A DNA stretch of 64,000 bases from a virus. The stretch is from the IMG/VR virus record IMGVR_UViG_3300042987_002978, positions 32,001 to 96,000 of that record; one strand, given 5' to 3'. How positions within the stretch are numbered: the first letter of the stretch is position 1; the number at the start of each line of letters is the position of its first letter. This document shows positions 3,487 through 6,400 of the stretch, in pieces. A program made the translations under genes and the position numbers. The notes under the pieces were generated by a model. That model did not search any database. It saw only the letters and a program-made list of their open reading frames with translations, and had not been told where the DNA came from.

Positions 3487-6400
3487 TTAACATGCTGGGC
3501 CGCCAAATGGGCCGGCAACACACGCTCCGGCGTACGGACCGCACACTTCGTTCACGAACAGGAACTCGGTGCATGTCTCGTTTCCACTTGGGGGAGTCAC
3601 TGGCGGCGTAACGGGCGGCGTCACCGGCGGCGTCACAGGGGGTGTCACCGGGGGTGTCACCGGTGGTGTCACCGGCGGCGTCACCGGGGGCGTCACCGGG
3701 GGCGTCACCGGGGGTGTCACCGGGGGTGTCACCGGGGGTGTCACAGGAGGAGTCACCGGGGGAGTCACAGGCGGTGTGTAAATGCCATAGCAGTCATTGG
3801 GAGCATTCTGGAACGGCGACAAACAATAACCTTGGCAACAACAAATTTCGTTTACATACAAGAACTCTGTGCAAAGTTGACCGTCATTGACCGGGGGAGT
3901 CACAGGGGTTACTGGCGTCACCGGAGTCACCGGAGTAACCGGAGAACACGTTGCTCCGAGCCCGCCAGCAATGCACTCACCTACGTAGTTGCACTGTTCT
4001 GAAGCATATTGCTGCGGTGTGCATGCACCATACGACACTGGAGTCACCGGCGTCACTGGCGTCACTGGCGTTACCGGTGTCACGGGGGTCACCGGTGTTA
4101 CGGGAGTTACGGGAGTTACGGGAGTTACGGGAGTTACTGGGCTACCGCTTGAGCCGCATCCGGCAATGCAATACTTGATGTAATTGTTTGCGCCGTACAT
4201 GTATGCATATAACGTTCCTTGTGGAGAGCCAGTTGTATCTGTGGCATCAAACCAAAAAGAAATAGCCCAGGGCGCGCCTCCCAAACCCTCTTCGACCGCA
4301 TGCGGTCTCCAGTAATAAATACCTTTTGAATCTGTGCTTGTCGTACTTGCCGGGTCGCGCACTTCTATGTTTTGAATAAGCGCTTCGCCATTGCCAATCA
4401 AAATTCCTGCTGCTGAAATTTCTCCAGTCCCAGAATTCGCATTCGGGTCGAACACCATTGGTATTCCGCCAGTGTTTGATTGCAGTTGTCCGGATGCAAG
4501 AATTTCCCAATCGCCTATAAATCCTTCTGTTGCAGAAACAATACCGGTTATATCTGCGTTATCAGCAACAAGATTTCCGGCATTGTCAACTGAAAAACTT
4601 GAGCCAATGGTAAGAGAACCACCAGTTATGTCAATATTTGATGCAGTTACCGCACCGGTATTGTCTACATAAAAATCTGAACCGATTGATATTGTGCCAC
4701 CAGTGATATTGCCGGAAAATTCGCCTGCTATAGCAGTTACGTATCCACCAGAAGTTACAGAAAACGGAGCAGTTGATAATGACGCAGAACCCAACCACAT
4801 ATTTCCGGATGAATCAACGTGAAATGATGTATTGTCTGAACCGCCGATGTCAATGGTTGAACCGACGATTTGTCCGGCAAAATAACCGTCAATCGTATAA
4901 AAATCACCCGTACTTGCGCTTACCTGAGTTACCAAATCTCCAGCATTGTTGTATGCGTAAAGACCAGAGGAGTCTATTACCAATCTTGGATTGCTAGTTC
5001 CAGTCTGCAGTGTCGGAGCCGTTAAGGTGCCTTGAATCCACGCACCGTTTCGAATTATGACTTGGTTCAATTCTGAGTTGCCGTCTGCCTCAATGGTCCA
5101 TCCGCTGACATTTTGTACGTAGTTGTTAGAACGAATCGCGCCGTTCAAGACTATTTGCGCGCTCGCAGAAGCAGTGAACGGGAACGGGTCTGACGGAACT
5201 CCGGACTGACCGTTGACCGTGTACGGAATGACTGTGAAGTTATATTGTCGGCCAGGAGCACCAAGATTCTCAAATGCCGCTGATGTTTGGTTTGCTGGCA
5301 CTGTCGCTGAGTGTCGTTCGATTACGCGCACCACGTCGCCAGAGGTATGGGTTCCGATTGGGATGTCGGGTCCGACGTCGTCAAAAGTGAACGAGGACCC
5401 GGAAGCGCTCGTCAAGAAAACGTTCGTACGGTCAAAATACGCGCTTGCCGTATCATAAATGTTTATCCAGTCACCGACGCCAAATCCGGTTGAGGAACTG
5501 ACCTCAACGTATGCGATGTTGCCGTCGCGATAAATGTTTGTGATTGGATAGGTGATTGCGATTCCGACGGAGTCTTGTTCTTCTCGGTATACAACGGCCT
5601 CGTATTGGACGGCGCTGGTGTTGTCTGCAGGTTCCCAACCGACAACTACTCGGTTGCTTAAGCCTTGTACTTCCGCCCCAACCGAAGTTCCGGTCGGCTT
5701 GAGGGGCTTTGAGGAAGTACCGCGGAGGGTAAACGTCGGCACATCAGCAGCGGACAAACGACCGTAATTTGCCGCGTATTTGAGGTTCGTCGCAATGTCG
5801 GCGAAGATATCGCCAAATGTGACCTCGACCGTCTCGTTACCTGTTTCGTCTACCGCAACACCGATTGCGCTGATTATGCGTTCGCTGAACGTCCCAGTGT
5901 CAATCTCCACCAATACTTTGTCGCCGATGTCAAAGTCAAACCACGCCAGCATTTCATCGCGTTCCGTGAACTGTGCCGTAATCTGTAGTTTTCCGTCTTT
6001 GACTTGCCGCACCGCAGAGGCGGTGATGTTTGCGACGGCTGGCGCATCATCGGAGGTGTTCTCGACGAACATCTCCCTGAATCCGTAAGTTCCTGTTCTT
6101 TCTGAAATTTGACGGTCGAGATTGAACCCGTCAGAACCGTATACGACCGTTCGCAGTTCCGCCACGGATGTTCTCGTCTCAACCGACGACAACATTGGCA
6201 GACTGAACAAGAGGGCGGCAGAACCAGAAGTCAAATCATTGCCGAATGGCTCGTCAAAAACAATTGTGTCCGTCACAAAAGGACGGACCGCAATGCTTAT
6301 TACTCCGAGCGGAGAAACGTGCCAATCCACTCCAGTATTGGCAGAGACTTCGTTCAAAACATCAAGCATCGTCCTACCTACGGCGATGTTGAAGTTCCCA

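Follow-up and report, generated by a model that had tools for sequence, protein, structure and literature searches.

Plant hydroxyproline-rich glycoproteins (HRGPs), especially the hybrid proline-rich proteins with their eight-cysteine motif (8-CM) and the PRP and extensin types, combine a Pro-rich repeat with a small Cys-rich domain, and this repeat, with its Pro-Val core motif, is served by a dedicated enzyme of the prolyl 4-hydroxylase (P4H) class and by dedicated glycosyltransferases. A virus-encoded enzyme of this class is known from the chlorovirus PBCV-1, whose P4H hydroxylates viral Pro-rich repeats such as Pro-Ala-Pro-Lys (PMC3634087). In the Skp1 pathway of Dictyostelium and Toxoplasma (PhyA and Gnt1), a cytoplasmic P4H acts first, and Gnt1, a member of the GT60 family, then adds N-acetylglucosamine (GlcNAc) to the hydroxyproline (PMC6939170). 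The present analysis concerns a phage locus with comparable components, located in a 64,000-nucleotide window (positions 32,001 to 96,000 of the IMG/VR record IMGVR_UViG_3300042987_002978) that is a portion of a 104.8-kb contig of an uncultured lake virus. A 1329-aa tail-tip (Tal-like) protein (3487-7476, minus strand) carries at its C-terminus an array of Pro-Val stalks alternating with Cys-bearing mini-domains, hereafter knots, and is directly followed downstream by four tightly packed or overlapping genes, for a small accessory protein, a DUF6171 protein, a two-domain 2-oxoglutarate (2OG)/Fe(II) oxygenase and a GT61-family glycosyltransferase. The stalk/knot carrier and the downstream cassette are interpreted here as the two halves of one module in which, on balance probably, hydroxylated and, in this virus, glycosylated stalks present exchangeable, disulfide-locked adhesin knots.

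The likeness to the plant HRGPs lies in the architecture and in the gene linkage, in that a Pro-rich repeat occurs together with a dedicated P4H-like gene and a glycosyltransferase gene, but no sequence homology was detected between the phage repeat or knots and the plant proteins. The carrier is synthesized in the cytoplasm of a bacterium as part of a phage virion, whereas the plant proteins are secreted into a eukaryotic wall; its hydroxylation is predicted, and the knots of this module contain 4 to 22 Cys in 31 spacings, none of which is the 8-CM. The PDB matches of the oxygenase C-domain include the PBCV-1 enzyme (5c5t), but this match is weak (E = 0.016); moreover, the phage oxygenase bears an additional conserved N-domain, has DUF6171 as its obligatory partner, and is encoded next to its presumed substrate, within the tail module of a phage that infects bacteria. 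In the Skp1 pathway, the target is a single Pro with a regulatory role, whereas the phage target would be a long structural repeat. A Skp1-type PhyA/Gnt1 system was considered and rejected for the window, which has a GT61 enzyme (PF04577) rather than GT60; sister loci do have GT60.

The fungal carbohydrate-binding module CBM1, with a spacing of about C-x10-C-x5-C-x9-C, is a similar four-Cys module of ~30 aa, a small surface-binding wedge that is borne on O-glycosylated Pro/Thr linkers. However, the CGG and terminal QC motifs of CBM1 are missing from the phage units, none of which matches CBM_1 at E up to 10, so that the likeness is limited to spacing and architecture, and an identity with CBM1 was rejected. 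Among phages, the antireceptor of Streptococcus thermophilus phages is said, in the 2001 work of Duplessis and Moineau, to contain a variable region flanked by collagen-like repeats, which is likewise a repeat-bounded, exchangeable host-specificity module. In contrast to that system, the repeats here are Pro-Val rather than Gly-X-Y, the exchanged elements are Cys knots of 26-60 aa rather than folded domains, and the knots are accompanied by a dedicated modification cassette. Modular tail-tip C-termini with a terminal Peptidase_S74 chaperone are a more general parallel, one that sister phages of this virus show at the same position. Mycobacteriophage virions are reportedly glycosylated by transferases encoded next to the structural proteins that they decorate (Freeman et al. 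are said, in citing papers such as PMC11256854, to have described this in 2023). There, capsid and tail-tube C-termini are modified and no hydroxylase is involved, whereas here the tail-tip stalk would be modified and the oxygenase is the constant enzyme. No paper was found that describes the stalk/knot/oxygenase module, and no literature was found on DUF6171 or on hydroxyproline in phage tails.

The array lies on the minus strand and is described here from its N-terminal to its C-terminal end. The last globular domain of the tail-tip protein is closed by a Cys pair, YCIAGCG (C1103 and C1107; 4153-4173), which the earlier sequence-only reading of this DNA did not mention and which recurs as YCxxxC[GA] at the equivalent position in 10 of the 10 long carriers examined. 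It is followed by stalk 1, which consists of (PVT)11 and PVS (4033-4140), knot 1, with four Cys spaced C-x9-C-x5-C-x8-C (3946-4023), stalk 2, (PVT)5 and PPV (3889-3942), knot 2, in which an extra adjacent Cys pair (CCC) brings the four core Cys to six (3790-3873), stalk 3, (PPVT)15 (3595-3774), and the C-terminal knot 3, with four Cys spaced C-x9-C-x6-C-x9-C (3490-3573). The three units are 26-28 aa long, conform to the common frame C-x9-C-x5/6-C-x8-10-C and contain no CxxC. The translation of the C-terminus reproduces exactly the units quoted in the sequence-only reading, with their 4, 6 and 4 Cys, their separation by Pro repeats and the CTEFL.VNE.C shared by units 2 and 3, and its description of discrete mini-domains with even Cys counts holds. 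The last globular domain before the stalks also gives a sub-threshold match to PF21784, the '4-fold beta flower' (19.7 bits compared with a cut-off of 25; 4100-4210 in the window, about residues 1110-1156 of the protein).

The composition of this C-terminus is far from what chance would produce. All 16 Cys of the tail-tip protein are found in residues 1103-1329, with none in residues 1-1102, and Pro accounts for 25% of residues 1103-1329 compared with 3.6% in the remainder; across all six frames of the 104.8-kb genome, neither the knot-unit pattern nor the Pro repeats occur anywhere else. The four core Cys are invariant in all 14 aligned units, and the extra Cys of knot 2 come and go together: both are present in the window, in the first unit of the related contig L008 and in L004, and both are absent from the second unit of L008 and from L005. 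The stalk repeats are perfect at the peptide level, the DNA differences between units being confined to third codon positions; the 15 PPVT units are encoded by 10 distinct DNA sequences, and no exact self-match is longer than 29 nt. Such constancy of the peptide despite variation at third positions indicates that the stalk peptide is under selection. The knot units are real, selected mini-domains, which probably are locked by disulfides. The stalks amount to ~114 repeat residues and would span ~35 nm in the polyproline-II form.

Searches with the individual units did not place them in a known family. None of the three matched a Pfam family at E up to 10, the sole sub-threshold match being DUF3299 (E = 0.21). 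The PDB sequence search, which was run with unit 2 only, returned a protein glutaminase (E = 0.23) that was dismissed as a chance match because a 30-aa unit cannot form this fold. A profile of the type-B unit produced four matches among 1.84 billion representative proteins, all of them junk and at least two of them translated CRISPR-type repeats, and a broader unit profile retrieved a single hypothetical protein of 1245 aa from a set of 5.8 billion proteins. Several candidate identities were examined and rejected. For an EGF-like domain, there is a four-Cys core with no Pfam match for the three units and no convincing PDB match for unit 2, and a zinc ribbon or rubredoxin knuckle was rejected given the lack of CxxC in the window units. 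The sequence-only reading had called the units knottin-sized, which holds for the size but not for the fold: units 1 and 3 have four Cys, the two additional Cys of unit 2 are adjacent and dispensable, and the core of four invariant Cys is not the six-Cys knot of knottins (inhibitor cystine knots), of which no fold match was found either. As judged by these searches, the units belong to a previously undescribed, larger phage module, outside any Pfam or PDB family.

The enzyme cassette, to which the sequence-only reading of this feature did not link the units, is the main clue to how the stalk/knot region works. The first of its genes, all on the minus strand, encodes a 134-aa accessory protein (3049-3453), predicted as a possible fibre chaperone, for which no family could be assigned, with no match in Pfam, PHROG or the Atlas. 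Next comes the 87-aa DUF6171 protein (2817-3080; PF19668, 35.2 bits compared with a cut-off of 27), with six conserved Cys in the arrangement CxxC...CxxCxC...C. The 444-aa oxygenase (1476-2810) has a C-domain that matches PF13640 (45.6 bits, cut-off 27) and whose top PDB matches in a profile search are the P4H of B. anthracis (2.6e-8) and then P3H1, followed by PiuC-type hydroxylases, PHD2 and the PBCV-1 P4H. This domain has the HxD...H triad (H371/D373/H424, all invariant) and a basic K/R near position 434 that are expected of the P4H clade, and is prolyl-hydroxylase-like. The N-domain is an orphan with an HxD...H...R motif of its own (invariant H108/D110/H154/R156); a profile-profile comparison of the two domains detected no similarity, no PDB match was found for the N-domain, and the Atlas gave it a weak lead to 2OG oxygenases only. 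An AlphaFold model of the oxygenase from the single sequence reached a pLDDT of 34. The last gene, which overlaps the oxygenase stop by 8 nt, encodes the 325-aa GT61-family glycosyltransferase (506-1483; PF04577, 51.1 bits, cut-off 27), with no PDB sequence match. The G+C content of the GT61, oxygenase and DUF6171 genes (40.1, 41.6 and 42.4%, respectively; 506-3080) is ~10 points below the 50-52% of the tail-tip body, Dit and the whole window, so that the enzyme cassette looks acquired from a source of lower G+C.

The linkage between carrier and cassette is apparent already among the 11 related viral contigs with the same tail-tip body. In the bead-type relatives (L008, L004, L005/L007/L009 and L015), the protein ends in Pro repeats with one or two Cys units, and the small protein, DUF6171 and the oxygenase follow in all of those with downstream sequence, i.e. 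all except L008, whose contig ends right after the tail-tip gene. In contrast, the relatives L003, L006 and L010 end in Peptidase_S74 and lack all three genes, the tail tip directly adjoining the next conserved gene. A Peptidase_S74 (PF13884) C-terminus was considered for the tail-tip protein of the window itself and rejected, as this protein lacks the domain. The claim of the sequence-only reading that the units occupy the site of a trimeric beta-helix receptor-binding domain is borne out insofar as the position is that of a distal module, which in these relatives is Peptidase_S74. The 134-aa protein keeps its position in the bead-type relatives, is missing from the S74-type ones and has distant versions in other lineages.

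The same arrangement extends well beyond this lineage. A search of viral contigs with the oxygenase alone identified the lineages L022, L023/25, L026/27/30 and L031, at identities down to 37%, in which a carrier lies directly upstream of the small protein and DUF6171 wherever upstream sequence exists (L022 is cut at its 5' end). The carriers of these lineages have no BLAST similarity to the tail tip of the window, yet end in Pro-Val repeats between Cys units with the same spacing as those in the window, e.g. CNPGD.GF.GC..PG.C....ASGG.C. A metagenome scan with the oxygenase added 62 loci, with the enzymes conserved down to 32% identity, and a Pro-Val repeat/Cys carrier precedes the cassette in each of the 47 that could be assessed; the other 15 contigs end too early for the upstream region to be evaluated. 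The small protein usually lies between the carrier and DUF6171, which is present at every module locus whose contig covers its position, and no other Pro-Val/Cys carrier ORF was found elsewhere on the same strand of the metagenome loci. The oxygenases form 18 clusters at 70% identity, and a profile search detected no relative of them in 185,579 prokaryote genomes. Two carrier designs are seen: in one, a long fibre closes with YCxxxC[GA] ahead of the stalk; in the other, a short FN3-like protein bears a single stalk and a single terminal knot. The architecture and the strict gene linkage are firm.

The glycosyltransferase is an accessory of the cassette, present in ~20 loci as either GT61 or GT60 and encoded on either side of the oxygenase. 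In ~10 other loci, the oxygenase has a GT61 homologue as its neighbour, and a PF11397 protein, presumably of the CAZy family GT60, stands in place of GT61 in ~9 metagenome loci as well as in L023/25 and L031; PF11397 genes adjoin the oxygenase in L023, L031, L038, L071, L080, L084 and L089. Since two unrelated protein-type transferase families have been recruited to the same spot, the product of the cassette is likely to be glycosylated; this recruitment argues for glycosylation without discriminating hydroxyproline from Thr/Ser. In some loci, a GNAT-type acetyltransferase, which may be a further tailoring enzyme, is encoded between the carrier and the accessory protein (L089:639-1157, L090:1102-1620, L038:2-448 and L079:1-222). 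Additional oxygenase-like genes follow the two-domain oxygenase in two loci (L058:2141-2611 and L062:2667-4312), so that the enzyme set can expand. A general tie between DUF6171 and tail fibres was considered as well: the DUF6171 homologue gp054 of the cultured Synechococcus phage S-SRM01 (L095, 2360-5306) directly follows a gp38-like 'adhesin tip' protein, and that of PSS2 adjoins tail genes, but the tie fails in the phages Moby and S-T4 and was dropped as a rule. The adhesin tip of S-SRM01 has an 11-Cys cluster, and the same fibre module contains a tryptophan halogenase.

In contrast to the enzymes and the stalks, the knots vary from carrier to carrier. The sequence-only reading had suggested a comparison of tail-tip C-termini in related phages, and this comparison shows that the region is not invariant, homologous bodies carrying one, two or three units of different kinds. 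Whereas the window carries a type A, a type B and an A/B hybrid unit, the body closest to it (L008, 86% identity) carries two type-B units; the 76% identical body of L045 has two CNPGD units and a CPDCG knot, that of L080 (67%) has the CPDCG knot only, those of L070, L039 and L066 (40-51%) combine a C-x11-C unit with the same CPDCG knot, and that of L068 (42%) joins this C-x11-C unit to another knot. Thus, an identical terminal knot (CPDCG...YSCQ) is found on bodies that are 40-76% identical to that of the window, but the closest body has a different set. These sequences indicate that knots are shuffled among divergent fibre bodies. Because every boundary between knots is a Pro repeat, exchange through the repeats, as the sequence-only reading had anticipated, appears to be the simplest account.

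The wider survey encompassed 53 carriers with 75 Cys-bearing segments following a Pro repeat, of which 74 were classified as knots. The Cys count is even in all 75 segments (4, 6, 8, 10, 12, 14 or 22) and in all 31 distinct Cys spacings (binomial p = 4.7e-10), but in 37 of the 74 classified knots it is not a multiple of four. His makes up 0.4% of the knot residues, and Lys and Arg ~1% each. Some carriers are very Cys-rich (26-38 Cys; L031:4833-6440, L087:1399-2643 and L084:1-666), their stalks being separated by large multi-knot segments that contain as many as 22 Cys; one of these carriers has a run of 17 Gly. The strict even parity, with half of the counts not divisible by four, favours disulfides over Cys4 metal sites, and the pattern looks like the signature of fully paired disulfide domains; of the two kinds of staple that the sequence-only reading had left open, disulfide or metal, the former is thereby preferred.

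The stalk is monotonous compared with the knots. Across the 53 carriers, the repeat units (PPVT, PPVV, PPVS, PVS, PVT, PVA and so on) have Val after the last Pro in 785 of 876 cases (90%), whereas the 74 classified knots use 31 Cys spacings. Given that the enzymes and the repeat are conserved and the knots are variable, the repeat is the likely enzyme substrate, and, by analogy with the known systems, the Pro-Val motif would be the part that is recognized; in plants, Pro-Val is described as always hydroxylated (PMC4730328). Under this interpretation, prolines of the invariant Pro-Val motif would be hydroxylated by the oxygenase inside the infected cell, after which the glycosyltransferase would place a sugar on hydroxyproline or on the repeat Thr, so that the stalk would be stiffened and protected from proteases. 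The accessory protein may aid the folding of the fibre in place of the S74 chaperone domain of the sister phages. The knots, at the distal end of the tail tip, are assumed to oxidize once lysis has released the virions into oxic water, with two disulfides per four-Cys core and the extra Cys pair in unit 2, and would act as small exchangeable adhesins that make the first contact with the host envelope.

Several observations weigh against this interpretation. The virions assemble in a reducing cytoplasm, so that any disulfides would have to form late, and nine terminal knots of sister phages have a rubredoxin-like CPxCG with a metal-binding look and may indeed bind metal. The AlphaFold model of unit 2, built from a 14-row alignment, is of low confidence (pLDDT 64.8) and found no PDB match with Foldseek and no match in a wide structural search. 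No activity could be assigned by searches to the oxygenase N-domain, DUF6171 or the 134-aa protein, the N-domain had no match among the 50,697 records of the phage collection, and DUF6171 lies among small hypothetical genes in the Stenotrophomonas phage Moby and the Synechococcus phage S-T4. The linkage itself could be partly a matter of inheritance, with the carrier and the enzymes travelling as one mobile cassette: a tree of the N-terminal 900 residues of the tail tip is compatible with a single swap between bead-type and S74-type ends and did not demonstrate more than one. Finally, the trypanosome GT60 polypeptide GlcNAc-transferase acts on Thr. This enzyme is described as a polypeptide GlcNAc-transferase (PMC6939170), and the GT61 family has among its members EOGT, which attaches sugar to Ser or Thr within EGF domains (PMC13123520); because both families thus can also glycosylate Ser/Thr, a sugar on Thr requires no hydroxyproline.

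Four rival explanations have to be weighed together with these points. The units might be stapled by Zn or Fe on four Cys, with the six-Cys DUF6171 delivering the metal or mimicking the metal site. Besides the cytoplasmic assembly and the nine CPxCG knots, this idea draws on 24 knots with at least two CxxC and on the CxxC...CxxCxC of DUF6171, but CxxC is missing from the window units, many knots have 6, 10 or 14 Cys and half have a number not divisible by four, there is hardly any His, and unit 2 and its counterparts gain or lose the extra Cys as a pair; metal stapling is therefore quite unlikely. The notion that the array is low-complexity filler, a functionless disordered tail with chance cysteines, appeals to its strongly biased composition, the lack of a database family and the low-confidence fold model. 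It is already contradicted by the conservation data, namely, repeats that stay perfect at the peptide level under synonymous DNA drift, four Cys invariant across the 14 aligned units, even parity throughout the 75 segments and enzyme synteny maintained across 18 oxygenase clusters, and is exceedingly improbable.

A further question is what the oxygenase modifies. One or both of its domains could act on the knots, or on Asp, Asn, Val or Thr of the repeat, in the manner of AspH, with the GT61 enzyme working like EOGT on Ser/Thr. Only one of the two oxygenase domains is P4H-like, EOGT acts on Ser/Thr within small disulfide domains (PMC13123520), and many type-A knots end in [ST]-G-x-x-C. However, knots with 31 spacings are too diverse for a constant recognition site, whereas Pro-Val is constant and the enzymes are conserved down to 32% identity, and the nearest solved relatives of the C-domain are all prolyl hydroxylases rather than members of the AspH family, so that a non-proline target has a low probability. 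Alternatively, the array could have a surface function other than receptor binding: it might attach the virion to particles or slime, protect the tip against proteases or grazers, or act as a spacer. Many carriers, with a short FN3, a stalk and a knot, are not tail tips and are reminiscent of decoration proteins; but in the window and at least 10 other carriers it is the distal end of the tail-tip fibre that the array replaces, the sister phages have an S74-matured distal domain at that position, and host-range determinants would be expected to show just such a swapping of knots while the bodies are conserved. Such a role is unlikely, if somewhat less so than the other alternatives. Hydroxylation, glycosylation, disulfide formation and binding by the knots are predictions of the working model.

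The assignment of the 1329-aa protein to the tail tip is based on the gene order, with the tape measure gene (8354-13288; PF10145) followed on the minus strand by Dit (7476-8348; PF22768) and then by the gene at 3487-7476, as in siphoviruses with a Tal protein. The protein also matches the minor tail protein family phrog_110 (3.5e-9) and reaches 25.7 bits with Sipho_Gp37, slightly below the cut-off of 26.2. The structural genes of the window form two blocks, the portal, protease and capsid genes at 46-55 kb and the tape measure, Dit and Tal genes at 3.5-13.3 kb. The region between them (13300-46000) encodes an SNF2 helicase (16241-18619), two GT4-like transferases (22208-24423), a carbamoyltransferase (26310-28016) and a 1364-aa fibre with an Mtd_N domain (37004-41098). 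The host is likely to belong to the Actinobacteria, given that the phage genome contains, outside the window, two WhiB genes (G000:C1:101004-101195, plus strand, and 23762-23959, minus strand) and that its portal is nearest to those of Gordonia phages (38% identity); among 14 control genomes, the WhiB family matched Corynebacterium only.

In its widest form, the proposal, which is tentative, is that freshwater actinophages possess tail fibres with hydroxyproline-rich, sometimes glycosylated polyproline stalks, which carry disulfide mini-knots from a combinatorial set of at least 31 Cys frameworks, exchanged from fibre to fibre so as to alter host binding. If true, a phage virion would be seen to carry hydroxyproline for the first time, and a chemistry regarded as characteristic of eukaryotic walls and collagen would reach into the virions of bacteriophages. 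The phages would then also possess a natural display system for knottin-sized binders, run by a phage-specific two-domain oxygenase with DUF6171, and it would become clear why a thin fibre remains extended in lake water and withstands the proteases there. Few unexplained genes are as common in aquatic phages as those for 2OG-Fe(II) oxygenases, which are mostly classed as helpers of metabolism; in the present virus, such an enzyme gains a concrete candidate substrate, the phage's own tail fibre. The even-Cys rule, which holds over 31 frameworks, provides a simple signature for finding more knots, and these would form a new family of binding modules, very small, stable and shuffled in nature, from which host ranges might be predicted or binder scaffolds drawn.

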